DNA of 26,090 nucleotides from IMG/VR virus record IMGVR_UViG_3300006755_000007, positions 1 to 26,090 of that record, one strand, 5' to 3'. Below, one piece after another: positions 8,519-26,090 of this stretch. Position numbers and translations under genes: made by a program. Source of the stretch: a virus. Its lineage: Duplodnaviria > Caudoviricetes. The notes below the pieces were generated by a model that worked only from the letters and a program-made list of their open reading frames with translations, made no database searches and was not told the origin of the DNA. The stretch's first letter is position 1. Every line of letters begins with the position of its first letter.

Positions 8519-8679
8519 CGCTGGCCTCCTCGGGCGCAGGACGGATGGTGGACACGTCTTGCGGCCCGGCTCTCAGCTCAGCGGCCACGTACTGATCACA
8601 GAGTAAGGCATCGGTCAATGGTGACTCTGTGTAGACAATGCGCAGTGTAGTCGCGTGGACTACAGAGAGTGCCTAGTCG

Positions 8680-8775
8680 GCATCTAGACGGGTTAGACGG
8701 GTAGTCCGGTTAATTCCCAGATCGTATATCCCACGCGGGGAGGATCCGGGGTACCTGTCTAACCCGTCTAGATGC
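8680..8775. repeat. Palindromic iteron-containing element, copy 1
   Basis: 30-bp arms (outer 19 bp perfect: GCATCTAGACGGGTTAGAC/GTCTAACCCGTCTAGATGC) around a 36-nt spacer; homologous to 25653-25744. Confidence 0.92.
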
Positions 8776-8782
8776 TGTCTGA

Positions 8783-8947
8783 CTAGGCCTTTCCCTTCGG
8801 AACGGCCTTGTAGGTGCCGCCCTTCGAGCTTGCCGACACCGCGATCCGCGCCTCCTGAATCGTCGCCACGGTCACGCTCGGTTCACCCCCCTTGAACGTC
8901 ACCTCGTACGAGACGTTGGGCCGTGCGGCCCCGCAGCATCCCGCCAT
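8783..8947 (-). CDS. Small protein with N-terminal CC motif (54 aa)
   Basis: Not in the ORF track. TAATG coupling to the protease gene; MAGCCGAARPNVSYEVTFKGGEPSVTVATIQEARIAVSASSKGGTYKAVPKGKA. Confidence 0.7.
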   Translation of the reverse strand: MAGCCGAARPNVSYEVTFKGGEPSVTVATIQEARIAVSASSKGGTYKAVPKGKA

Positions 8948-15251: not shown

Positions 15252-15749
15252 TCAGCTGGCCTTCCTGCACAGGAAGTATTCGTGTTCGTTCAGTACGACG
15301 ATCTCACCTGCGTAGCCCGTCGGGCACGCCTCAGCCGGCTCGCCCTGGTCGCCTTGCGGTCCGACCGGCCCAGGCGCCCCGCTCGGACCAGGAGGGCCCT
15401 CCGGGCCGCGTTCGCCTTGCGCCCCTTGAGCCCCTTGAGCGCCCGTAGGACCTGATGGACCGACCGGCCCGGTTTCGCCAGTCGGGCCCAGAACGCCCGG
15501 CTCGCCCTGCGGTCCCGGGCCCCCGGGCCTACCGTCGGCACCATCACGCCCGTCCTTTCCGTTCGTCCCTGTCTCGCCCTTCGGGCCCGCCACCGGGGTG
15601 CCGCCGAGGTCGCGCACCTGTTGCGCGAGCGCGGTGCGGTCGCGCTCGGCGGCCGTCAGGCGGTCCGCCAGCTGCTGGCCGTAGGCCAGGGCGTACGCCA
15701 CGGCCACGGACAGCGCTATGACGACGAGCCACCAGCGGACGGCTTTCAT
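15252..15749 (-). CDS. Membrane-anchored collagen-like protein
   Basis: N-terminal hydrophobic helix, short coiled coil, 28 consecutive Gly-X-Y triplets and a C-terminal CPTGY...C motif; ATGA coupling. Confidence 0.85.
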   Translation of the reverse strand: MKAVRWWLVVIALSVAVAYALAYGQQLADRLTAAERDRTALAQQVRDLGGTPVAGPKGETGTNGKDGRDGADGRPGGPGPQGEPGVLGPTGETGPVGPSGPTGAQGAQGAQGERGPEGPPGPSGAPGPVGPQGDQGEPAEACPTGYAGEIVVLNEHEYFLCRKAS

Positions 15750-16006
15750 GGCTTCCCCAGGACGGCGTACAGGATGATGCCCACGATGACAGGGGCCACC
15801 ACGGCCGTCCACACCCAGGTTTTCATGGCCTCGGTGCGCGCCTGTTGGGCAGCCACCTGCTTGGCGACGGCGGCGAGCTCCAGCTCGGCTACCCGCTGGT
15901 CGGCGGCGCGCTGCTCCTGCGTGACGTACCGGTCCATCTGGGAGAGGATCCGGGACACGTCCGCCTGGAGATCCCGGAGCAGCTCGCCGATCGTGGGCTC
16001 ATCCAT
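15746..16006 (-). CDS. Holin-like / lysis accessory membrane protein
   Basis: Coiled coil plus a single C-terminal TM segment (WVWTAVVAPVIVGIILYAVL), directly after the endolysin. Confidence 0.6.
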   Translation of the reverse strand: MDEPTIGELLRDLQADVSRILSQMDRYVTQEQRAADQRVAELELAAVAKQVAAQQARTEAMKTWVWTAVVAPVIVGIILYAVLGKP

Positions 16007-16016
16007 CAGCGCCGGG

Positions 16017-17123
16017 TCAGCTCATCGGCCAGGTGTGCAGCTCCAGCCATGCGTCCTCGACGGTCACGGAACCGGTGCCCTGACGGGAGACGACCTTGAA
16101 CACGAGCCGGTTGGCGACGGTGCCGTTGACGGGGACGGAGACGCTGATCGGCATCTGACCGAGGTCGCGGCCCTGGATTTCGCGCTTCACCGGGCTGTCG
16201 CCGGCGAGCGTGCCGTCCGAGTACTCCTCGGCGGCGTAGACGTGGACGACTTCTTCGCGCTTCAGGCCGGTCAGCACGAGCGTGACGACGCCGGAGTAGG
16301 TGACGTTGGAGGCGACCGTCTTGCCGCCGTCGGCGTGGCCGTTCGCGTCGTCGGGGTACTCCTCGGTCCAGTAGATCGTCTGGGCTACGCCATCGACCAG
16401 GGTGAGGTTCTCCTGGCGGCGGCCGACGAAACGGTTGGGCTTCTCGGGCATGTCGGTCCCTGTCTGCGGGGGCGCCGTGGCGCCGGGGTTCCAGCCTGCC
16501 GAATGCGCAAGCCGTTCCTTGATCCTCGCACGGAACGCGGGCATGGACGGCATGCCTGGACCAGCCGGGTCGGGCTTGTAGTCGGACCACTCCTTGTGGC
16601 CGATGCACGACTTCTCGGACCACTGGTGGAAGCGGCAGACGGCCGCGTTGGCGCGCACCATGGCCTCCACCTGGGCCTCGGGCCACGGATCCTTGCCGTT
16701 GCCGTAGTTGACGCACTCGTACCCGTAGAAGTGCGGGTTGCCGTCCACGGCCCCGGCGCTGCCCTGGTGCTGGTGGGTGGCCGGGGGCACGTCGTTGTAG
16801 CGCTCGTCGCGCACGGCGGCCAGCACGTTGGGGTCGCCGCCTCCGGCGTGGTTGGCCCGGCCGTTGCCAACGAGGTGGACGACTCCGTCCTTGGTGATAC
16901 AGCCCTGGGCGAGGGGGCCGGGCAGCTCGTCGTCCCCGTCGAAGATGTACTGGACGGCGCCGGAGCTGCCGCCGCCGGTGTGGTGATTGATCACGCCGTT
17001 GACGGGGCCCCAGGCGCCCTTGTGGTTGCGGTTGTGGGTCCGCCAGCCGGGGTACTCCACCACGGTGCAGCCCTCGGCACGGAGTGCGGCTACGTACTGG
17101 TCTGCGGTCATCGGTGTCGACAT
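16017..17123 (-). CDS. Endolysin, N-acetylmuramoyl-L-alanine amidase (Amidase_2)
   Basis: GVINHHT, GRANHAG, FYGYEC and IGHKEWSDYKPDP catalytic motifs. Confidence 0.92.
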   Translation of the reverse strand: MSTPMTADQYVAALRAEGCTVVEYPGWRTHNRNHKGAWGPVNGVINHHTGGGSSGAVQYIFDGDDELPGPLAQGCITKDGVVHLVGNGRANHAGGGDPNVLAAVRDERYNDVPPATHQHQGSAGAVDGNPHFYGYECVNYGNGKDPWPEAQVEAMVRANAAVCRFHQWSEKSCIGHKEWSDYKPDPAGPGMPSMPAFRARIKERLAHSAGWNPGATAPPQTGTDMPEKPNRFVGRRQENLTLVDGVAQTIYWTEEYPDDANGHADGGKTVASNVTYSGVVTLVLTGLKREEVVHVYAAEEYSDGTLAGDSPVKREIQGRDLGQMPISVSVPVNGTVANRLVFKVVSRQGTGSVTVEDAWLELHTWPMS

Positions 17124-17125
17124 GG

Positions 17126-17272
17126 TCAGTTACCGCCCTTCTTCAGGGCGGCCAGCGCCCGCAGCTGGTGGGTGACCCACTCGGCCAGCACGTGGTCCGG
17201 GGTGTTGGACTCGGAATCCCACCCCCATTCGTTCAGCAGTCGGGCCAGCTCCGTCTGGAAAGCTTCTTCCAC
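17126..17272 (-). CDS. Small hypothetical phage protein (48 aa)
   Basis: Not in the ORF track. MEEAFQTELARLLNEWGWDSESNTPDHVLAEWVTHQLRALAALKKGGN fills the gap up to the endolysin. Confidence 0.6.
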   Translation of the reverse strand: MEEAFQTELARLLNEWGWDSESNTPDHVLAEWVTHQLRALAALKKGGN

Positions 17273-17311
17273 GCGATCACGTCCCTTGTCGTCGTCTTGG
17301 CCAGAATACGA

Positions 17312-17342
17312 CGAGACCCCCGCCGGGTGGACGGGGGTCTCG
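17312..17342 (-). terminator. Hairpin at the boundary between the middle genes and the lysis/late genes
   Basis: Perfect 11-bp stem CGAGACCCCCG/CGGGGGTCTCG with 9-nt loop, followed on the minus strand by TCGTATTCT. Confidence 0.7.
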
Positions 17343-17351
17343 GGGTCAGGG

Positions 17352-17549
17352 TCAGCTGTCGTCGGGGCGTTCGTTGAAGTCGGCGGCCGCGATCAGCCGC
17401 TCTCCGACGGACCGGGCCTCCTCGTTGGTCAGCCGTAGGTGACCCTTCTCGTCGGTAATGACCTGAGTCACCCAGACGTACAGCACGGAGATGTCGGTGC
17501 CGGTGAGGGTCTCCCCGGCGGAGTAGACGTTGAACGGGCCCTCATCCAT
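17352..17549 (-). CDS. Hypothetical protein (65 aa)
   Basis: Coupled ORF ending LTNEEARSVGERLIAAAD, a common actinophage small-protein pattern. Confidence 0.65.
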   Translation of the reverse strand: MDEGPFNVYSAGETLTGTDISVLYVWVTQVITDEKGHLRLTNEEARSVGERLIAAADFNERPDDS

Positions 17550-17613
17550 GGCCGCACCCCTTGACCCACCAGCCGCAGCGGGCGCAGTAGCGGTACTCGG
17601 TTCCGTCGCTCAT
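17542..17613 (-). CDS. Micro-ORF, Cys-rich peptide (23 aa)
   Basis: TGATG overlap upstream and 8-nt overlap downstream; MSDGTEYRYCARCGWWVKGCGHG. Confidence 0.45.
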   Translation of the reverse strand: MSDGTEYRYCARCGWWVKGCGHG

Positions 17614-17786
17614 CAGCCACGTACCAGGGTCACGATGATCGCGACGATGACGACCAGGTTCACGCAGGACTGTGCGATGACACCCCCGACCGTCAGGGGC
17701 TTGCGCTCCTTCCCGACCGCCCACGGTGCCAGGAGCAGTCCCAGGGCGTGGATCACGAGGAGGCAGTAGAGCAGGATGGTGATCAT
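17613..17786 (-). CDS. Small 2-TM membrane protein (57 aa)
   Basis: ATGA coupling; two hydrophobic stretches flanking GKERKP. Confidence 0.7.
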   Translation of the reverse strand: MITILLYCLLVIHALGLLLAPWAVGKERKPLTVGGVIAQSCVNLVVIVAIIVTLVRG

Positions 17787-18112
17787 GATTCGTCCCTTTT
17801 GTTGAAGCGGGACCCAAGCCACTTGCTCGGGCCGACGGTCAGCCACCGGTTGGGGTGGCTTGGATCACGCATCAGCGTGACCTGCGGTTCTTCTTCCACA
17901 GCCCCTTCCGGGGCCGGTGGGGGAGCGGGGTTAGGTGTAGGTGGCACGCGCTTGGCGGCCCAGATGATCGCCCCCCACCCCACGGCCCACAGGGCCAGGA
18001 CCGAGAAGGTCGGGGTGATCGCCCACATGAGGCTGGCGAACCCCAGGACGACCGTCGTCGCGACGGCCGCCCCGGCGCAGCCGGTGCCCTCGGGGGTGTC
18101 GTCCTCGCTCAC
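17783..18112 (-). CDS. 2-TM membrane protein with Pro-rich tail
   Basis: GTGA coupling; hydrophobic hairpin then PPTPNPAPPPAPE. Confidence 0.7.
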   Translation of the reverse strand: MSEDDTPEGTGCAGAAVATTVVLGFASLMWAITPTFSVLALWAVGWGAIIWAAKRVPPTPNPAPPPAPEGAVEEEPQVTLMRDPSHPNRWLTVGPSKWLGSRFNKRDES

Positions 18113-18624
18113 GACACCACCGCCGTGAACCAGACACCAGCCAGGTTGGCCGCCGAGGCGAGCGGTACGGCCGCCCAGCGGGCTATCCCGGCCGAGAGGG
18201 CCAGGGTCCCGCCGGAGAGGAACCCTCGCCACTTCGAGCCGGTGGCGCCCTTGTCGTGGCGGACGTAGAAGACCACGAAGGACAGGATCGCCATGAACAG
18301 TCCGCCCGGCGTCAGGACCAGGTTGGCGGTCTGCGGGGCGAGCATCTGGGGGCCGCCGAACCCGTACTGATAGACCGCATCCCCGACGAAGGTCGAGCCC
18401 CAGATCATCCACTTGCCCAGCACCCCGGCCAGGCCGCCGACGCAGAGGGTGAACAGTGCCCCGATCGCCCAGGTGAGGACGAAGGGAAGCAGCTGCCCGA
18501 GGTAATGCAGCTTGCGCTTACCCGTGAGGGCCTTGATCCCGGGGTACCAGTCGGCGATCTCCCAGGCGAGCATCGAGAAACCGATCAGGAGGGTGCCGAT
18601 CGTGTAGTAGACGGGCGCGTTCAC
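18109..18624 (-). CDS. Multi-pass membrane protein (171 aa)
   Basis: GTGA coupling; about 4 hydrophobic Gly-rich segments. Confidence 0.75.
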   Translation of the reverse strand: MNAPVYYTIGTLLIGFSMLAWEIADWYPGIKALTGKRKLHYLGQLLPFVLTWAIGALFTLCVGGLAGVLGKWMIWGSTFVGDAVYQYGFGGPQMLAPQTANLVLTPGGLFMAILSFVVFYVRHDKGATGSKWRGFLSGGTLALSAGIARWAAVPLASAANLAGVWFTAVVS

Positions 18625-19472
18625 TTCGGGAGCACCCCCAGGTACCGCAGCAGCCGGGTGGCACGCTCCTGGCCGACGCCCAGGTGAGTCTTCATACCGA
18701 CCACGGTCGGGTTGCTCGTACTACCGACGTACTCGGTCGCGCCGGGCAGGTACGGCTTGTCCCGGTCTTCGAGTACGCCCCCCTCGATGGCTGAGGGACC
18801 GTCGGGTATGGGCTCCGGGTCGGGTACGACGGTCAGGTACGGGACGGGTGAGTCCGGGTCGCCGTACTCGGCCGTACTCCACGCCTCGGGTACGGAGTCG
18901 GGTACGGACGGGTGCGGGGTCCAGTCGTAGTTGAGTACGGGTGCGATGTCCGGCCCGGCCTCCGGGTACGGGAGTACGGCGGCGGTCTCCACCGGGTACG
19001 TACCCAGCTGCGCCGAGGTATCGGGTACGAGCTCCTCGGGGGCCTTCACCACACCCGAGAAGAACGCGTCCGCCGTACCCGCCTTGAGACCCCAGAGGAT
19101 CTCCTGCCGGGTACGTACCCGCTCCAGCGAGTGGACCCGCCAGACGATACCCGGGGCGATGGCGCCGACGGCGGCCGTGATACCCACCTCCCACCTGACG
19201 TCGTCGGGTACGAGGTCGGCGGCCAGGAGGTGCGAGGTGACGTTGGCCAGGACCATGACGAGTACGGCCGTGGCGACGTCGCGCCGTACTCGCAGCGCCT
19301 GAATGACGTACAGGTCGAGTGCGCCGGGTACGGCCACCGCCACGTACTCGTTGACGTGGGTGGCGGTGGCGAGTGTGTACTCGGCGTGGGCCGTACCCAC
19401 CAGAGCGCACAGGAGCGCTCCGGCGAGTACGGGGTGGGTACGTACCCAGGTGACTGCGGTGGGCGTACTCAT
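18621..19472 (-). CDS. SpdB/DUF2637-like membrane protein with C-terminal HTH-like motif (283 aa)
   Basis: ATGA coupling; 3-4 N-terminal TM segments (TAHAEYTLA, AVPGALDLY, GAIAP.IVWRVH), Pro/acidic linker and C-terminal PTVVGMKTHLGVGQERATRL; same architecture as Streptomyces plasmid spread proteins. Confidence 0.7.
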   Translation of the reverse strand: MSTPTAVTWVRTHPVLAGALLCALVGTAHAEYTLATATHVNEYVAVAVPGALDLYVIQALRVRRDVATAVLVMVLANVTSHLLAADLVPDDVRWEVGITAAVGAIAPGIVWRVHSLERVRTRQEILWGLKAGTADAFFSGVVKAPEELVPDTSAQLGTYPVETAAVLPYPEAGPDIAPVLNYDWTPHPSVPDSVPEAWSTAEYGDPDSPVPYLTVVPDPEPIPDGPSAIEGGVLEDRDKPYLPGATEYVGSTSNPTVVGMKTHLGVGQERATRLLRYLGVLPK

Positions 19473-19626
19473 GCCTGGCTCCGGTACCTGACGCACGGGC
19501 ACTCGGTGCACTGCTTGTACCCGGGCCGGGAGTCGGCGTACTCGATGTGCTGCGCGTACTCGTGTCCGCACCCGCGCGCCTGGCACTGGGGTACGGGCCC
19601 GTTGGGGGAGGTACCGTCCGTACCCC
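18728..19626. repeat. Dispersed array of GRGTACG/CGTACYC motifs inside coding sequence
   Basis: Hand count of about 30 heptamers (about 39 GTAC in 18642-19623), both orientations, including GGGTACGTACCC at 18994, 19109 and 19436. Confidence 0.88.
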
Positions 19627-20143
19627 ATGCCCGGCTCGACTCCTGAATGGTCTGAGCCGAGCGCTTGGCCACGTCGGCCATGCGGGTGAGTTCGGACAGC
19701 AGCCGGTTGGCCATGACGGTCGTCTGGTTGGCGAGCGAGGCGCACGGGTCGCCCGGCTGGCCGTGGCCGTCGCTCCAGGGCATGCGGCATACGCCGCACA
19801 GGGGCTTCGGGTGCGACCGGGCGTCCTCGTACTTCGGCTCCTCGTACCCGCTGCCAAGCGCCTGGTGCAGCGGCAGGACGCGCGCCACTTCGTCGCGCAC
19901 TCGGCGCACGATCAGCTGGTCGATCAGGCTGCCCTCGACCACGCTCGACTGCAACGGGTCCTTGAGTTCCAGCCATTCGCCGAGGGCGGCGTGCAGGCCG
20001 GCGACGCGGTCGTGGCGGGCGCGCACCTCGACCTCCTCGCCGCTGTCCCCCTCGGACCGGAAGATCAGGTAGTCCTGGCACTTGCGGATTGACAGGCGGT
20101 CGTCGTCCTCGTCCACGTGGCTGAAGATCAGTTCAAACTCCAT
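19469..20143 (-). CDS. Hypothetical protein with two putative Zn-binding motifs (224 aa)
   Basis: TGATG coupling; CGVC..H..C and CQARGCGH....H...CTECPC. Confidence 0.7.
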   Translation of the reverse strand: MEFELIFSHVDEDDDRLSIRKCQDYLIFRSEGDSGEEVEVRARHDRVAGLHAALGEWLELKDPLQSSVVEGSLIDQLIVRRVRDEVARVLPLHQALGSGYEEPKYEDARSHPKPLCGVCRMPWSDGHGQPGDPCASLANQTTVMANRLLSELTRMADVAKRSAQTIQESSRAWGTDGTSPNGPVPQCQARGCGHEYAQHIEYADSRPGYKQCTECPCVRYRSQA

Positions 20144-20583
20144 CAGCTGTCCTCTCCGGGCTCCCACGGGAGCCATTCCTTCGGTCCGGGGCCGGTCAGG
20201 CGCCGGAAGTGCGGCCGCAGGCGAAGCGTGTTCTTGTCGCGCGCCCGGTGGGCGACAATCGGGAGGGCCCCGCCCCGGCGCGCGAGGTTGATGAGCGCGA
20301 TGCGCTCGGCGGGCGGGATGACCGGGTTCGTGATCTTGCACTGAATGAAGATCAGGGGGTTGAACTTGACGATGAGCGGGCCCAGCGCCATCGACGGTTC
20401 CGGCGGCACGCCCCAGACGTCGACCTTGCCCCTGGAGCCGGAGGAGCGTCCGGCGTCGTAGCCGAACCCTCTCCAGCCGATATGGCGGGGCTGTGCGTAG
20501 GTCGTCTCGCAGGTGCAGCCGACCAGGTAGTGCATGACGTCCAGCTCGAACCCGGCGCCCTGGCGGGTCGTGTTCCTAGCCAC
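20143..20583 (-). CDS. Hjc-type Holliday junction resolvase / PD-(D/E)XK nuclease
   Basis: G..FE, GY...RSSGS...VD and IFIQCK motifs. Confidence 0.8.
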   Translation of the reverse strand: MARNTTRQGAGFELDVMHYLVGCTCETTYAQPRHIGWRGFGYDAGRSSGSRGKVDVWGVPPEPSMALGPLIVKFNPLIFIQCKITNPVIPPAERIALINLARRGGALPIVAHRARDKNTLRLRPHFRRLTGPGPKEWLPWEPGEDS

Positions 20584-20941
20584 GGAACGGGTTCTCCGGA
20601 TCGTCGTCGCCTGCGGCCAGGACCCGGCGAGACGACCGCAGGCGCGCGTACTCGGCGGCCGTGACGCGCCGCTCTGCCGCTTCGCGCCTCTCCTGCTCGT
20701 CCTGGCTCTGGCGCTTGTCCGGCAAAACGCCCGCCTCGCAGAGCTTGCAGGAGTCGTGCCAGTAGTGCCGGTACTCGTCGTTGTAGTGGTCCTCGACCTC
20801 GGACTCTGCGCGCTCCAGGACGTCGTCCAGGGCGCTCAGAGCCGACGCCTTGAGCTCGCCGGTCTCATACGGGACGTTCGTTTCATCGGTGGCGATGCGC
20901 AGGAGCTGAATCAGCCCCAGGGCCGTGTCTTTGTCGATCAT
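20576..20941 (-). CDS. Hypothetical protein (121 aa)
   Basis: TGATG coupling; H..H..C..C cluster and a charged helix. Confidence 0.65.
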   Translation of the reverse strand: MIDKDTALGLIQLLRIATDETNVPYETGELKASALSALDDVLERAESEVEDHYNDEYRHYWHDSCKLCEAGVLPDKRQSQDEQERREAAERRVTAAEYARLRSSRRVLAAGDDDPENPFRG

Positions 20942-21159
20942 CAGTCCTCGCTCCGGTAGATGCACTCGCTCTTGTGGACTTCCTTGCCCGTCAGGGTCAG
21001 GCAGGAGCCGCACAGCTCCTCGTCGTCCCTCAGCTCCTTGTTCCAGCGCCGCTCGCGCGCCCAGTCCATCGCCAGGCCGGTGATCATGATGATCACTCCG
21101 ACGAGGACGCCGAGGCACCCGGCCAGAAGCCAGATCTGCCACGTCTGCCATGTCTCCAC
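20941..21159 (-). CDS. Small single-TM protein with CxxC..H..C tail (72 aa)
   Basis: GTG 21159 after GAAGGGA; hydrophobic N-terminus. Confidence 0.65.
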   Translation of the reverse strand: METWQTWQIWLLAGCLGVLVGVIIMITGLAMDWARERRWNKELRDDEELCGSCLTLTGKEVHKSECIYRSED

Positions 21160-21189
21160 GGCTCTGTCCCTTCTCTCGGTGGTGCTGAG

Positions 21190-21237
21190 TGCCCCCGGCC
21201 GGATTCGATCCGGCACCCTCACGGCGTGCTCGGGGGC
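21190..21237 (-). ncRNA. Mini tRNA-like element (acceptor stem and T-arm; no D arm or normal anticodon arm)
   Basis: GCCCCCG-N16-GCCGG-ATCGAAT-CCGGC-CGGGGGC-A: 7-bp acceptor stem stacked on a 5-bp stem with a 7-nt loop; intergenic. Confidence 0.55.
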
Positions 21238-21253
21238 GGTACTGCGGCGGTGC

Positions 21254-22048
21254 TTAGACGGGCTTGGGGATGAGCGACTCGGCCGTCTGAATGATCGTCT
21301 GGAGGTCGCGTCCCTCGCGCACCGCGTTCCAGGCCCGGGTGTAGTAGGCGAGGTTGACGTAGAACGGGGGCTTCTTCTGGGAAGCCTTGTCCCGCATGAG
21401 GCGGTCCCGCAGGGTGAGGACGGGGTGGCCCACGTCGAGCTTCGCGCCGGTCTCCAGCTGGGCGAAGAACTCGGCGGCCGCCCCCTGGTCGATGCGCTGG
21501 AACAGGTGGTGGGCGACGCCCGTGACGGTGGCCGAGGCCGGCCGGAAGTGCGCGTTGACCCGGGTGCCGACGTCGGCGCTGCGGCGCAGCGAGCCGTTGG
21601 CGGCCAGGTACTCGCTCAGCTGGCCCGGCGTGGGGGCGAAGTGCGGGGTGAACTTGTGGTTGCCGTTGTCCCACATCCACGCCCGCCGGGCGGTGGCCGC
21701 CAGGACGTTGACGTTGATCTCGCCCCGGATCTTCCAGGCGTCGGCGGTGGTCCGCTTGCGACCGAGGTCCATGGTCTCCTGCGTCTGGATCGGCAGACCG
21801 GTGATCAGGAGGATCTCGATCGTGACGCCGGACTTGACGACGGCGCTGAGGCGGTGCTGGCCGTCCAGGAGGGTGCCGTCCTCGGAGAGCTTGATCGCCT
21901 CGCCATTGAGGCGCCATTCGCCGTTGGTCATGGCGTTGGCCAGCTCGGTGACGCGGCTGTCCGAGAGGTTGCGGTTGTGCTCGTTGCCCTTGAGAAAGGC
22001 GGTGGCCTCAGCCGGCCCGATCGTGGTGACGTTGGCGTCAATGGTCAT
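21254..22048 (-). CDS. ParB-like / DGQHR-domain protein (264 aa)
   Basis: N.HNR.LS, M.NGEW..NGEAI, LLDGQHRL.A and MDLGRKRT..D motifs; RBS AAGGA; has its own promoter-like motif. Confidence 0.8.
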   Translation of the reverse strand: MTIDANVTTIGPAEATAFLKGNEHNRNLSDSRVTELANAMTNGEWRLNGEAIKLSEDGTLLDGQHRLSAVVKSGVTIEILLITGLPIQTQETMDLGRKRTTADAWKIRGEINVNVLAATARRAWMWDNGNHKFTPHFAPTPGQLSEYLAANGSLRRSADVGTRVNAHFRPASATVTGVAHHLFQRIDQGAAAEFFAQLETGAKLDVGHPVLTLRDRLMRDKASQKKPPFYVNLAYYTRAWNAVREGRDLQTIIQTAESLIPKPV

Positions 22049-22109
22049 GTCTGGGTCCTTGTCTCGTGTTGGGTTCTCGGGGCCGGGCTCTTCATCTGCC
22101 CGGCCCCTC

Positions 22110-22150
22110 GATGTCTTAAGTAAACCCCGGTCCGTGTCCTGTGTCAACCC
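22110..22150 (-). promoter_or_regulatory. Conserved promoter-like motif, copy A
   Basis: GGGTTGACA-N16-GTTTACTTA-A-GACATC; same layout as 25334-25374. Confidence 0.75.
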
Positions 22151-23838
22151 TTGACGTACGGATCGAACACTCGGGCTGCGATCCGCACGTCGATGGCCGT
22201 CGACAGCTCGCCCCGACGCAGGCCCTCGGCCTGGACGCCCAGGCGCGCCGCCAGGTCCAGCTGCGGCTGGGAGGGCGCCGACTTCCGCCACCGGGCGCTA
22301 CGGGCCGTGGAGAAGGACGCGTAGTCCTCCGACACCGCCTCGCCCCAGGCCATGGCGCTCCCGAGGTCCAGGCCGGTGTACTGCGTGCGCTTCCACTTCT
22401 GCCTGCGCTCGGCCGTGCAGACGTCCCACAGCCCCGCCTCGGCCGAGGGCCACAGGAAGACGTAGGTCTCGCCGCAGTTGATGAACAGGACGCCCGCAGG
22501 CGTGCGCACCCACGCATGCTCCGAGGTCTCGAACGCGCTGACCTCTCGCGCCTTGAGTTCGAAGGCCAGCGAGCCGGCCGCCACCTTGGCGTTGGCCTCG
22601 GTCTCCTCTCGGATCTCCGCCTCGGCCAGCGACTCGCCGTCCCGGATCGGCCCCCGGTAGTGGTCCGGCTCCAGGTCGATCAGGGTGCGCAGCTTGTTGG
22701 CCGAGGCGCCGACCAGGTCGAGCACCAGGGCCTCGGTCTTGCCGGGGTACGGCCGCAGGACCCGGCCCACCATCTGCGTGTACAGCGGGGCCGACTGGGT
22801 GGGCCGGGCGATGACCGCTACCTCGGCCTGCGGCATGTCGAAGCCCTCGGTGAGCACCATGCAGTTGACCAGGACCTGAAGCTTCCCGGTGCGATAGGCG
22901 TCGTAGATCGCCTGACGGTCCTCCCGGGGTGTGGTGCCGTCCACAACGGCCGACGGGATGCCGCCCTCGGAAAGGGCTTCCCAGGCCGCGTGCGCGGTCT
23001 CCACCGTCGGCGTGAACACGATGCCTTGACGGCTCCCGGCGTGGTCCTGGTAGGCCCTGGCAATGGCATCGTCGGCCTGCGACTCCATCAGGGCCCGGCC
23101 GAGGTCTCCGGCCTGCCAGTCACCCCTGGACGACTTCACCCCGCCCAGGTCGAGCGCCTTCAGGTCGATCTGCCGGGTCCGGACGTCGGTCAGATAGCCC
23201 TTCGAGATCATCCACAGGATCGACTTCTGGTAGACCACGTCATCCCACTGGTCCCCGAGGCCCCGCCCGTCGCCACGGGCCATGGTGGCCGTGACGCCGA
23301 GCTGGAGCGCGTTGGGGAACGCCGCGTAGACCTTCTGGTACGACGCGGCTGCGGCGTGGTGGCACTCGTCGGTGATGATCAGGCCGATGGGGCGCGACTC
23401 GGGCAGTGCCCAGCTGGATCCACCTCCCTCCTCCGCCGCCCACAGTTGCTGACGTCGCTTCTCGCTGGCCAGCGTCTGGACGGACGCCACGATCACGTCC
23501 GCCGCGACGTCGTTGTCCTGCGCCTTGACCTTGCCGACGTTCACGCCCGGCATGACCGCGCGCAGCTTGGCGATGGCCTGGTCCACCAGCTCGTCACGGT
23601 GGGCCAGGATCATGACGCGGCGGCCCTTGTCCGGCCACTGGGTGATCCGCATGTCCGTCCCGATCGGCGTCACAGCGGTCTGGTAGCTCATGAACTCCCG
23701 GACCAGGGCCGAGAACACCACGGTCTTGCCGGCGCCGGTCGGAAGGACGATGGCCGGGCGCTGCATGCCGCCCGACCACGCCCCGAAGACCGCGTCGATC
23801 GCAGCGCGCTGGTAGTCGCGCAGCTTGATCTCGGTCAC
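22144..23838 (-). CDS. SF2 DEAD/DEAH-box helicase
   Basis: LRDYQ, PTGAGKT, AHRDEL, DECHH, TAT, LTEGFD and QMVGRVLR motifs. Confidence 0.95.
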   Translation of the reverse strand: MTEIKLRDYQRAAIDAVFGAWSGGMQRPAIVLPTGAGKTVVFSALVREFMSYQTAVTPIGTDMRITQWPDKGRRVMILAHRDELVDQAIAKLRAVMPGVNVGKVKAQDNDVAADVIVASVQTLASEKRRQQLWAAEEGGGSSWALPESRPIGLIITDECHHAAAASYQKVYAAFPNALQLGVTATMARGDGRGLGDQWDDVVYQKSILWMISKGYLTDVRTRQIDLKALDLGGVKSSRGDWQAGDLGRALMESQADDAIARAYQDHAGSRQGIVFTPTVETAHAAWEALSEGGIPSAVVDGTTPREDRQAIYDAYRTGKLQVLVNCMVLTEGFDMPQAEVAVIARPTQSAPLYTQMVGRVLRPYPGKTEALVLDLVGASANKLRTLIDLEPDHYRGPIRDGESLAEAEIREETEANAKVAAGSLAFELKAREVSAFETSEHAWVRTPAGVLFINCGETYVFLWPSAEAGLWDVCTAERRQKWKRTQYTGLDLGSAMAWGEAVSEDYASFSTARSARWRKSAPSQPQLDLAARLGVQAEGLRRGELSTAIDVRIAARVFDPYVKG

Positions 23839-23930
23839 TTGCCCTTCTCCTTCTCCGCCTTGGCGGCCGCCTGACGGCGCTTGCCCGCCGAGCTGCGCCG
23901 TTCGTTGCCGGTCGGGTTCTTCCCGACCAT
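23835..23930 (-). CDS. Micro-ORF, basic peptide (31 aa)
   Basis: MVGKNPTGNERRSSAGKRRQAAAKAEKEKGK; GTGA overlap with the helicase start. Confidence 0.45.
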   Translation of the reverse strand: MVGKNPTGNERRSSAGKRRQAAAKAEKEKGK

Positions 23931-23943
23931 GTCCCTGGGGTCC

Positions 23944-24174
23944 TCAGCCACGTCCCATGACCTCCACGCTCTGCCGGTACCAGCCCGAGTCGGCCACGGT
24001 GCAGCCGGGGTACGCCTCGTTGAAGCGCTTGCGCATCGACTCCTCCAGCTCCTGCCGAGCGTGGTCCGTGTCGTGCACGAACGCCGGACAGGTCATCTGG
24101 ACGTACGGCGTGCCGTGGTACTGCTCGACGGGCTCCCCCAGGATGAGGAACACCCAGATGCTGACGATCATCAC
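23944..24174 (-). CDS. Hypothetical protein (76 aa)
   Basis: RBS GAGGTG; tightly packed in the operon. Confidence 0.6.
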   Translation of the reverse strand: MMIVSIWVFLILGEPVEQYHGTPYVQMTCPAFVHDTDHARQELEESMRKRFNEAYPGCTVADSGWYRQSVEVMGRG

Positions 24175-24175
24175 G

Positions 24176-24427
24176 TCACCTCTTCGGTGCAGGCTTCGGC
24201 GCCTGCGGCTTGACCATGGAGACCTTCGGCGACAGGGTCTTGACGCTCGCCTTGGGAGCGGCCGGCTTCGGCGACAGGGTCTTGCGGGGCTTGGCCCGGT
24301 CGATGTCGACGTCCAGTTCTACGCCGGGCACGTCCGGGACGTCCGCCGGGGCGGTGCACTTGTCCAGGGCCAGCACGCCCGCCACGATCAGGCTGAAAAC
24401 GACGAAGGCCAGAAGCACGTGTCTCAT
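24176..24427 (-). CDS. Small membrane/secreted protein with Lys/Pro-rich tail
   Basis: ATGA coupling; N-terminal hydrophobic helix; KTLSPK occurs twice. Confidence 0.7.
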   Translation of the reverse strand: MRHVLLAFVVFSLIVAGVLALDKCTAPADVPDVPGVELDVDIDRAKPRKTLSPKPAAPKASVKTLSPKVSMVKPQAPKPAPKR

Positions 24428-24633
24428 GCCGAGGCCTCGCGCTCCACCGAGATCCAGGCGGCCAGGATGTTCTGGGCCTCACGGATCCTGCGGGCGTTGC
24501 GGCTCATCTCGGTGTTGCTGCGGGTCATCGCCGGAACGGTGCGTCCCGCCGACTCCAGCCGGGCGAGCGTCAGCTCCGCCTCGGCCCGGTGCTTCCTGAT
24601 CGTCGCCAGGACGATCGGGTGTACGCCGCTCAT
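24424..24633 (-). CDS. Hypothetical protein (69 aa)
   Basis: RBS AAGGAG; stop coupled to the next gene. Confidence 0.6.
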   Translation of the reverse strand: MSGVHPIVLATIRKHRAEAELTLARLESAGRTVPAMTRSNTEMSRNARRIREAQNILAAWISVEREASA

Positions 24634-24958
24634 CACTGCTCTCCTTCCACTTCGCTTCCCAAAACTCTTCGGTCTCCCGGTCGGCGCCGCACCGAATGCA
24701 GGCGCCGGACCGGTTGTACTCGTGCTCGGCGAACGTGACGCCCCAGGACGCCACGCAGACGTACCAGCCCCGCCCCTGCCGCCGGACTCTCCACGTTCCG
24801 TCCCGAATCCCCCGGGAGCGGTTCTTGTCGTACGCGCTGCGCCAGGCCTTGCACCTCACGCACCGGCACTTGAACCAGCGGTGGGCGAAAGAACTGCCGT
24901 GCGATACGTGGTCGGGGAGGTCCACCGGCGGTTGCGGCGGATCGGGGCGCCTGCTCAC
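24479..24958 (-). CDS. Zn-binding hypothetical protein
   Basis: GTGA coupling to the LuxR-like gene; HG...CRCVRC and H......CIRCG motifs; C-terminal tail overlaps the next gene. Confidence 0.6.
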   Translation of the reverse strand: MSRRPDPPQPPVDLPDHVSHGSSFAHRWFKCRCVRCKAWRSAYDKNRSRGIRDGTWRVRRQGRGWYVCVASWGVTFAEHEYNRSGACIRCGADRETEEFWEAKWKESSDERRTPDRPGDDQEAPGRGGADARPAGVGGTHRSGDDPQQHRDEPQRPQDP

Positions 24959-25311
24959 TTCGGAAGGAGCGCCGCCGCTCGCCCGGTCAGGATGTTGGCT
25001 AGACCTTCGAGCACGTGGTTGACGTGCTCCTCGGTCTCGTCGATCGGGACCGGCAGCTTGTTGCTCCGCAGCATCTCCGCCGCCCGGTTGTAGGCCAGGT
25101 AGGTGGCGTAGCGTGCGATCGCCTCACGCGTCGTCTTCGCGCCCATCTTCTGGGTGGCGTACCCCATGTCGTTGGTGATGACCTGCCGGCTCTTGCCCAT
25201 GCGGTGGGCGATCGACTGGTACAGCTCACCGGTCGCGACGGCCGACAGAATGTCGAACTGCCGAGGCGTCAGGGGGCCCTTCTGGTTCTTGTGCTGGACC
25301 TCTTCGGTCAC
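24955..25311 (-). CDS. LuxR-type HTH transcriptional regulator (118 aa)
   Basis: GTG 25311 after GAGGAGG; LTPRQFDILSAVATGELYQSIAHRMGKSRQVITNDMGYATQKMGAKTTREAI. Confidence 0.8.
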   Translation of the reverse strand: MTEEVQHKNQKGPLTPRQFDILSAVATGELYQSIAHRMGKSRQVITNDMGYATQKMGAKTTREAIARYATYLAYNRAAEMLRSNKLPVPIDETEEHVNHVLEGLANILTGRAAALLPK

Positions 25312-25333
25312 GGTGACCTCCTCGTTCGGGGGT

Positions 25334-25402
25334 GATGTCATAAGTAAACGGCGACAAATGTCGTCTGTCAACCCCTGTCGCCAGGGAAGTACCCTGGCGA
25401 CA
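25334..25402. promoter_or_regulatory. Divergent promoter/operator region
   Basis: Promoter motif copy B (25334-25374, minus strand), dyad CGACA-AA-TGTCG in its spacer, and perfect IR TGTCGCCAGGG-N5-CCCTGGCGACA (25376-25402). Confidence 0.75.
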
Positions 25403-25632
25403 TGAACACAGAGATCACGCGCGTCACGCGCGCAGAGGCGGCCGTGCACGCGAACGTCAGCATGCGCACCATCAGCCGGTGGGCCGCCTCGGGCGCCCTC
25501 GGGAAGATCCACCGGCCGCCGAGCGGCTCGCCGGAGCCGGTCCGGTACGACCTTGCGCGCGTCCTGGAAGTCGCTCGCCGGTCACGCAGGGTGGTGACAG
25601 TAGAGTTGCCCGAACCGGACATCTCGGGTTAG
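25402..25632 (+). CDS. MerR/excisionase-type HTH DNA-binding protein (76 aa)
   Basis: VTRAEAAVHANVSMRTISRWAASGAL...VRYDLARV. Confidence 0.8.
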   Translation: MNTEITRVTRAEAAVHANVSMRTISRWAASGALGKIHRPPSGSPEPVRYDLARVLEVARRSRRVVTVELPEPDISG

Positions 25633-25652
25633 AGGATCCTCCGAAAGACAGC

Positions 25653-25744
25653 TCCTAGACGGGTTAGACGGGTACTCCGGTTAATTCTCAGATAGGATTC
25701 CTTACGCGGAGATGATCCGGACTACCTGTCTAACCCGTCTAGGA
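25653..25744. repeat. Palindromic iteron-containing element, copy 2 (candidate replication origin)
   Basis: 28-bp arms (outer 17 bp perfect: TCCTAGACGGGTTAGAC/GTCTAACCCGTCTAGGA) around a 36-nt spacer, about 100 bp before the primase-like gene. Confidence 0.9.
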
Positions 25745-25850
25745 CGTGACTAGGGCCTGGTCAGGGCACCCGCAACGAGACCGCCCCCGAACCTCAGAGA
25801 GGCACCGGGGGCGGCTCGCGCACCGTCAGTACGCACCTGAAGGGTACCGA

Positions 25851-26090
25851 ATGGACCTGATCACCGCTCTGTCACCGGAGCACTATGAGGAGCTGGTCGT
25901 CTCCTCCGTCATCGACCCGGACGTCGTCACGGCGCGTGGCTACCGGACGATGACCGGCACGGCCGCCGAGCGCGACGAGCTCGAGACCTTCGGCTTTACC
26001 CGCTACCAGATCCGCGACGACTCCTTCCCGCTCCTCCTCATCCCGATGCACGGCATGACCGGCGAGGCACGGGGCTGGCAGATCAAGCCG
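25851..26090 (+). CDS. Probable DUF3854-type primase/helicase, N-terminus (runs off the right edge)
   Basis: ATG 25851 after GAAGGG; MDLITALSPEHYEELVVSSVIDPDVVTARGY...LLIPMHGMTGEARGWQIKP. Only 80 aa are visible. Confidence 0.65.
   Translation, partial: MDLITALSPEHYEELVVSSVIDPDVVTARGYRTMTGTAAERDELETFGFTRYQIRDDSFPLLLIPMHGMTGEARGWQIKP

Follow-up and report, generated by a model that had tools for sequence, protein, structure and literature searches.

Why should a phage write one short DNA word dozens of times into a single kilobase, most of which encodes a membrane protein, and what reads it there? The question is raised by a 26,090-nucleotide stretch of DNA (the window), which is part of a tailed phage with 69% GC. 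Terminase, portal, capsid, tail and endolysin genes occupy its left side, a helicase and the start of a primase-polymerase its right side, and the array gene is placed between early genes and lysis/packaging genes. The genomes of close relatives measure about 41–43 kb. The host is probably an actinobacterium, because prophage-like relatives are found in Streptomyces assemblies. No match was obtained among 50,697 GenBank phage records, hence there is no cultured model phage. The features discussed below are collected in Table 1.

Table 1 Positions of the site array, of P0001 and its predicted parts, and of the adjoining genes in the window
Feature	Positions	Strand	Remarks
Dispersed site array	18642..19626		(C)GRGTACG here, GRGTRCR clade-wide; irregularly spaced in both orientations
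P0001 gene, 283 aa, putative membrane-anchored HTH protein	18621..19472	-	GGAG precedes the ATG; the ATG overlaps the upstream stop
Four-helix membrane domain, residues 14-118 (predicted)	19119..19433	-	Model, hydropathy and charge
Linker, Pro/acidic, length-variable	18768..19118	-	Low confidence: pLDDT <50 over much of residues 142-184
Three-helix FtsK-gamma-like HTH, residues 236-277 (predicted, confident)	18642..18767	-	Profiles and model
Upstream ORF, 224 aa, Cys/His-rich end	19469..20143	-	Stop overlaps the P0001 start; last 150 bp hold 7 GTAC
Multi-pass membrane protein, 171 aa, phrog_16379	18109..18624	-	Translationally coupled to P0001
Membrane protein, 109 aa	17783..18112	-	Coupled to the 171-aa gene; common downstream in phage loci

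The initial annotation had reported about 39 GTAC in about 1 kb, some 30 of them as GRGTACG or its reverse complement, and a recount gave precisely 39 (18642–19623) and 30, in both orientations (16 on the plus and 14 on the minus strand). The looser word GRGTRCR occurs 36 times. Of the GTAC, 32 lie in the P0001 gene and 7 in the 150 bp upstream, in line with the described extension of the array into the preceding gene. The 12-bp palindrome GGGTACGTACCC is present at all three places given for it (18994, 19109 and 19436), and the motif was correctly said to fall in different codon phases (14/8/10 for the GTAC in the gene). It was also correctly said to span both membrane-domain and linker DNA: the linker-coding DNA is the densest part of the array, and the membrane-domain DNA holds 9 sites as compared to 2.6 expected under a synonymous null. 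Helical phasing of the sites at 10–11 bp was not detected (1056 of 2000 nulls reach the observed value).

The expectation of about 3 GTAC put forward earlier holds as a base-composition figure, but is low against the remainder of the window, with 115 GTAC in 25.1 kb (4.6 per kb), and against codon-aware nulls, under which 7.3–15.9 are expected in the gene. Specifically, with the protein kept, phage codon usage gives 7.3 and uniform synonymous choice 7.3; permuting the synonymous codons of the gene itself gives 15.9, and shuffling its codons 9.1. The observed 32 was reached in 0 of 5000 draws for each of the four nulls, and the proposal of a DNA-level signal thus withstands a codon-preserving check. 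Where the protein permits a GTAC, the gene uses 32 of 37 places, as compared to 69 of 307 in 22 other genes. Moreover, such permissive places are more than twice as dense in the array gene (4.3 vs 1.9 per 100 nt), suggesting that the amino acids have been shifted toward the word too. The enrichment is local rather than genome-wide, as had been supposed: among 60 tiles, only the 3 that overlap the array reach at least 8 in −log10 p (8.1–17.7), and the best word in the 57 control tiles does not exceed 5.8.

Such a pattern could in principle be a by-product of local duplication or gene conversion, of a restriction decoy or of Z-DNA-prone sequence. The linker is indel-rich in the alignment, as duplication would have it, but the site flanks are unlike each other, a repeat search returned no repeat family within the array, and the sites fill synonymous positions in the conserved membrane domain. 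Both GTAC and GTGCAC are restriction sites. Still, the remainder of the window shows no avoidance of GTAC (230 seen vs 229 expected from a Markov model), which speaks against the restriction/modification decoy that the initial annotation had listed as an option. As for Z-DNA, the core GTRCR alternates purine and pyrimidine, and the tied fold matches of the protein include Z-alpha domains (see below); however, other word classes in the family, such as CGGAAC and GTGAGAC, do not alternate. None of these forms explains the covariation with the recognition helix described below, and a by-product is considered very unlikely.

P0001 has no family in Pfam, PHROG/PHROGs or NCBIfam, and 166 homologues were found. 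The structural model places membrane helices at residues 14–37, 42–62, 66–84 and 95–118, in agreement with four hydropathy peaks. Basic residues flanking membrane helices mark the cytoplasmic side (the positive-inside rule). In P0001 a basic loop, RVRRD, follows helix 2 and a basic stretch follows helix 4, suggesting that both ends of the membrane domain are cytoplasmic and that the HTH faces the cytoplasm. For the C-terminus, FtsK gamma is the top single-domain match of the family profiles (2J5P, E 5e-5), and 6 of 40 members score with PF09397 (FtsK_gamma; best E 5.6e-5). In the structure search, FtsK gamma ranks second (Z 5.8, rmsd 1.4, 43 residues aligned) and third (Z 5.5, rmsd 1.8), tied with unrelated HTHs, e.g. 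FapR and Z-alpha. The HTH profile also matches GntR repressors, and Foldseek returned nothing at E 0.001 for the whole model or for the HTH alone. An FtsK-gamma-like fold is a reasonable, not a firm, prediction. Matches of the family profile to PPR repeats were set aside as sums of many weak repeats. The recognition helix opens with Gln268 (codon 18669–18671), the residue that tracks the word in the comparisons that follow.

The first locus set consisted of 92 other loci (viral, genome and metagenome; duplicates included), 4 plasmid loci and 29 loci from Streptomyces genomes. Removal of duplicates, truncated genes and partial membrane domains left 89 genes, or 51 after dereplication at 90% membrane-domain identity. 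A held-out set of 134 further loci gave 80 new complete genes, 74 of them with a placeable HTH. Contigs from four runs that were compared with the region proved to be partial relatives and contributed nothing further. A gene-centred array is present in all 25 dereplicated genes of the phage clade (top word at 7–29 in −log10 p); in the wider family 36 of 51 reach 8, the arrays being weaker in distant relatives. An initial threshold of 4 was lax, as about 12 of the 57 control tiles pass it, and the counts at that level (48/51; 72/80) consequently overstate the distant arrays. Thirty DUF2637 genes, serving as a control of similar build, remained at or below 9, mostly from glutamine runs. In G307, a complete relative with the same word as the window, the sites form a single peak of 40 per kb vs 0–5 elsewhere. 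For 16 clade members, the array starts 200–400 bp upstream of the gene and ends at the HTH-coding stretch. Site density stays constant while positions turn over: the membrane-domain DNA of 18 genes shows 39 distinct positions at 12.9 sites per gene, and between 1 and 6 of the nine membrane-domain sites of the window are common to each of these genes. In the same DNA, 16 of 18 Gln-type genes, each with at least 9 sites, beat the synonymous null at 0/400; of the other two, L037 beats it with 5 sites and L023 does not.

The word follows the recognition helix. Once the HTH-coding DNA is left out and membrane-domain identity controlled for, similar words go with similar third helices (partial r 0.43; 0/5000, in Mantel permutations that ignore kinship). 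The first residue of the helix alone gives 0.64, the highest among 20 positions. Words were aligned to GRGNRCR for calls at position 4. Of 27 called genes with Gln at the first helix position, 26 have T (2 further Gln genes gave no call), and none of the 9 non-Gln genes of the first set has T; Thr goes with C in 5 of 6, and Trp and Gly with A. A Gln that opens a recognition helix classically contacts adenine. The held-out genes behave alike, with Gln–T in 30 of 32 called genes (4 without a call) and Thr–C in 3 of 3. There, SD(S/G)YGRR-type helices go with A (15/15) and GDSYGRR with T (5/5), and a Ser-to-Gly change at the helix turn accompanies the change from CGGAAC (15/15) to CGGTAC (5/5). 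Further helix–word pairs are SD(S/G)YGRR with CGGAAC, SRATAGRR with GTGAGAC, SEATAARR with GTGAGAG, and DPEWVRNQ with CCGGTA. Exceptions among 90 genes are 7 non-Gln genes with T and 2 Gln genes without it. The choice between A and G at position 5 of the word has no visible cause in the helix, almost identical helices going with anything between 0 and 96% A; in the window A makes up 90%, which is why this array is rich in GTAC.

Single lineages illustrate the same trend. L012, nested in the Gln clade, has exchanged Gln for Trp, and its membrane-domain DNA shows 9 vs 1 of the new sites and 2 vs 17 of the old ones. Of 17 groups in which the nearest HTH and the nearest membrane domain point to different words, 10 carry the word expected from the HTH and 2 that expected from the membrane domain (p 0.04), the latter both leading to a Gln-type gene. 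In several pairs with membrane domains 85–98% identical (L107/L110, L082/L074 and L104/L085) linker and HTH have been swapped together, and only the linker carries the new word. A self-recognising module would predict this pattern, which linkage of linker and HTH alone would give as well. Because kin share traits, independent contrasts are few, with only 3 pairs on supported branches in the first tree (p 0.25) and 6 in a larger tree, of which 4.1 point the same way and 0 the opposite way (p 0.125). In L075 and L077, a near-invariant Glu-Tyr of the membrane domain reads Glu-His, and GAGTACG has become GAGCACG, the word of their own helix class. As the word changes together with the HTH tail in related genes, the protein likely binds its own gene. 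The suggestion that the array is bound by the C-terminal HTH of the encoded protein hence gains support on comparative grounds.

Binding by another protein, either the ParB-like product of 21254–22048 named in the initial annotation or a host factor, was considered in the light of the same data. The ParB-like gene sits 2–3.5 kb upstream in many phage loci and is present in 4 of 5 complete relatives. Still, it is absent from the fifth, G307, which keeps both the word and the single peak, and several other loci lack it in the interval from helicase to array gene. Conversely, L012 does have the ParB-like gene, and there the word changed along with the gene's own HTH. Its product has no match in Pfam or PDB, and the ParB label is therefore a guess at the level of motifs. 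ParA (PF13614) was found in none of the 5 complete relatives (control 14/14); in this, and in a ParB-like gene that does not always accompany the array, the locus differs from ParABS systems. A host factor would not track the gene's own helix. Another binder is, like a by-product, considered very unlikely.

We therefore return to the reading in which the array is the target of the self-encoded HTH and, by way of the four-helix anchor, many bound copies tether the phage genome to the membrane. We assign it a probability of roughly two in three. Tethering is proposed because P0001 is predicted to be held in the membrane by four helices, with many copies bound along 1 kb. Taking the membrane topology and the FtsK-gamma-like fold as predicted, we infer direct binding, a preference for cis and the purpose as follows. 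P0001 would be inserted into the membrane while being made, and its HTH, on a flexible linker, would bind the nearest GRGTRCR sites, each as a single site. Some 35 sites of low information would give avidity and restrict binding to one kilobase, and the cis preference would arise via coupled transcription, translation and membrane insertion. The most likely purpose would be to position phage DNA at the membrane in a hyphal host, either while it replicates or just after its injection. P0001 would have no motor of its own, and the two coupled downstream membrane proteins may act together with it.

The genes of these two proteins and that of P0001 are all joined by start–stop overlap. Among 78 distinct loci with sufficient flank, 51 have the 171-aa gene at most 700 bp downstream. 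It is absent in plasmid loci and in many distant genomic loci; linkage makes its product a likely partner of P0001. A complex prediction for this neighbour and the P0001 membrane domain gave no answer (score 0.00).

Self-binding could also serve autoregulation, P0001 blocking transcription over its gene and the 150–400 bp upstream, and thereby capping a possibly harmful membrane protein and the two coupled genes. This would fit all covariation evidence equally, and the array does reach upstream and stop at the HTH-coding end; moreover, SpdB2 forms pores according to excerpts of PMC4447253. However, about 35 sites over 1 kb, at the cost of rare codons and changed amino acids, go far beyond what an operator needs, and a membrane-fixed binder would tether the DNA anyway. 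The gene is translationally coupled to its operon neighbours, and a promoter scan of 17000–26090, weak for this host, gave no candidate site. Autoregulation is accordingly viewed as improbable.

Among known systems, sites within a gene's own coding sequence have two precedents. SpdA2, in excerpts of PMC4170104, stabilises pIJ101 and recognises a 12-bp palindrome within the SpdA2 coding sequence, direct binding being shown by shift assay, and removal of the sites or of the gene lowers segregational stability; SpdA proteins are described there as 117–163 aa long, with a conserved N-terminal DNA-binding domain and 1–3 copies of one conserved 12-bp palindrome. The resemblance of P0001 to SpdA2/sps is that of a mobile-element protein with sites in its own coding sequence (32 of 39 GTAC in the P0001 gene), binding by P0001 being presumed. 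Unlike SpdA2, P0001 would be a 283-aa membrane protein with a C-terminal HTH and about 35 dispersed heptamers, the word varying across the family. RepAM of pMEA300, from excerpts of PMC2440964, likewise binds repeats in its own gene; it differs from P0001 in being a replication initiator rather than a membrane protein, with identical repeats that form a hairpin origin.

In overall build P0001 resembles SpdB2. Excerpts of PMC4447253 deal with the SpdB2/SpdB spread proteins (pSVH1, pIJ101), pSVH1 SpdB2 being the characterised member. SpdB2 is described as having four membrane helices, an N-terminal coiled coil, an oligomeric pore and non-specific dsDNA binding, and as working with TraB; SpdB2 homologues in some actinophages are noted there too. 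P0001 shares the four (predicted) membrane helices, a DNA-binding part and an operon of small membrane genes, but has no N-terminal coiled coil, only 13 residues preceding helix 1, and its phages have no TraB where tested. The 51-row membrane-domain profile was compared with pIJ101 SpdB and with the pSG5, pJV1 and pSN22 proteins and gave E >0.05 in hmmsearch and probabilities of 0.3–2.5% in hhalign. The pSG5, pJV1 and pSN22 proteins are here presumed to be the spdB2 products. DUF2637 (PF10935) gave no Pfam match for P0001 and an hhalign probability of 1.5% against 30 DUF2637 domains, and all Atlas leads were below 0.9. Gbn/SCO1839 was dismissed as a link to SpdB2, as spdB2 merely appears among the up-regulated genes in excerpts of PMC9239103.

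The C-terminal half is closer to DNA translocases. KOPS are polar sites on the same strand. Like TraB with clt and FtsK gamma with KOPS (2J5P, 2VE8), P0001 would place a C-terminal gamma-type HTH, for which support is modest, on a membrane-anchored protein, its third helix setting a 7–8 bp word; in TraB, helix alpha3 of the winged HTH reads the clt repeats (excerpts of PMC3583192). Unlike TraB and FtsK, P0001 has only membrane domain, linker and HTH and no RecA-type ATPase motor. Moreover, its sites are non-polar and dispersed in the reader's own gene, not arranged in short direct-repeat blocks. The earlier label "clt-like" fits less well on this account, and also because no TraB was found in the phages tested. 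A search with PF01580 found none in 5 complete relatives, but PF01580 is insensitive to TraB, and a profile built from six proteins was used instead. This profile scores the TraB beside L085 and L087 at E 1e-17 or better and gave no hit in the window or in two prophage regions, nor in the parts covered of G307 (40,000 of its 40,739 bases) and of G305 (about three quarters).

These results bear on the possibility that P0001 is a motor-less remnant or component of an Spd-type spreading channel, delivering the phage genome to an FtsK/TraB pump, host-encoded or co-resident, at hyphal cross-walls. Distant homologues do lie near TraB-like genes (L085, L087 and L095–L097), the plasmid homologues L095/L096 having long Scy-like coils, and a homologue is present in about 13–16% of the sampled Streptomyces-group genomes (39/301; 65/401). 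The pJV1 gene 666–1781 (L135), of membrane-plus-HTH build, carries 16 GTGAGC words of its own, separate from clt. Its counterpart in pSN22 (L133:5361–6444), with GTGAGC in the matching region, is a membrane-plus-HTH gene split in the record into ORFs of 251 and 98 aa. Both genes are presumably spdB2. SpdB2-like actinophage genes have been proposed to assist spread, in excerpts of PMC4447253. The phages tested nevertheless yielded no TraB with the six-protein profile, the sites are non-polar, and a sequence link to the named SpdB proteins is missing; the channel reading appears distinctly improbable.

Phi29 and CGP3 also encode their own means of recruiting replicating phage DNA to the membrane, as proposed here for P0001. 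According to excerpts of PMC4974454 and PMC4446434, phi29 p16.7 binds terminal protein and displaced strands, and p16.7 and p1 are DNA–membrane anchors; CGP3 AlpA is an adaptor to the actin-like filament AlpC, with sites in the promoter region, alpS being a degenerate motif concentrated at its own operon. In P0001, unlike p16.7 and AlpA, anchor, reader and target would be one gene. Taken together, P0001 would work like SpdA2/sps and SpdB2 combined, but is not a demonstrable member of either, because it fails the SpdB/SpdB2 and DUF2637 sequence tests and lacks the features that define sps and clt. A literature search covering mainly open-access papers returned nothing on arrays of this kind; the primary SpdB2 (Tiffert 2007) and TraB (Vogelmann 2011) papers could mention such repeats.

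More tentatively, and with the odds rather against so broad a claim, tethering by P0001 might exemplify an undescribed device, widespread among the phages, prophages and plasmids of actinobacteria, in which one gene would unite a membrane anchor, a re-programmable FtsK-gamma-like reader and a centromere-like target in its own codons. The HTH-plus-linker half would be swapped as a module of reader and address, giving each element a private address, and in phages without integrase, ParA or TraB the device would position naked phage DNA, or pass it, along hyphal membranes and cross-walls. If true, the "non-specific" DNA binding reported for plasmid SpdB2 would hide a specific target in SpdB2's own gene. 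The matter bears on two open questions, namely the positioning of phage DNA inside filamentous actinobacteria and the way in which Spd-type membrane proteins deal with DNA. The family offers well over a hundred natural HTH–word pairs with single-residue contrasts, which renders both an FtsK-gamma-like recognition code and the tether model testable. As comparable arrays exist in the long-used laboratory plasmids pJV1 and pSN22, experiments need no uncultured phage.

Regarding life style, neither tyrosine integrase nor serine recombinase was found in the 5 complete relatives (control genomes positive 14/14 and 2/14), and in two more distant relatives the locus lies near tyrosine integrases; the array gene is thus carried by both life styles. 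In L018/L019 (G003), and likewise in L040/L041, a single contig bears the locus twice, as identical copies at a distance of 39.5 kb, i.e. a tandem prophage or a concatemer. Within the window, the end of the ORF upstream of P0001 (19469–19600) has a zinc-finger-like Cys/His pattern whose codons stem largely from the array word, and a collagen-repeat ORF (15252–15812, minus strand) lies between holin-like and terminase genes, away from the tail genes. A pair of 110-bp hairpin elements of lower GC with long repeat-bearing arms (8671–8785 and 25641–25756; 84% identical over 97 nt) is placed upstream of the major capsid gene and of the primase-polymerase ORF, respectively. A 76-aa protein encoded just before the second copy (25402–25632, plus strand) gives a weak BldC-type HTH match, far under the cut-off (E 1.7e-4). 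The hairpin elements are candidates for an origin, a promoter switch or a packaging signal. G305 has a copy beside the primase-polymerase start, and G307 carries a different 160-bp hairpin pair of the same build in matching places.
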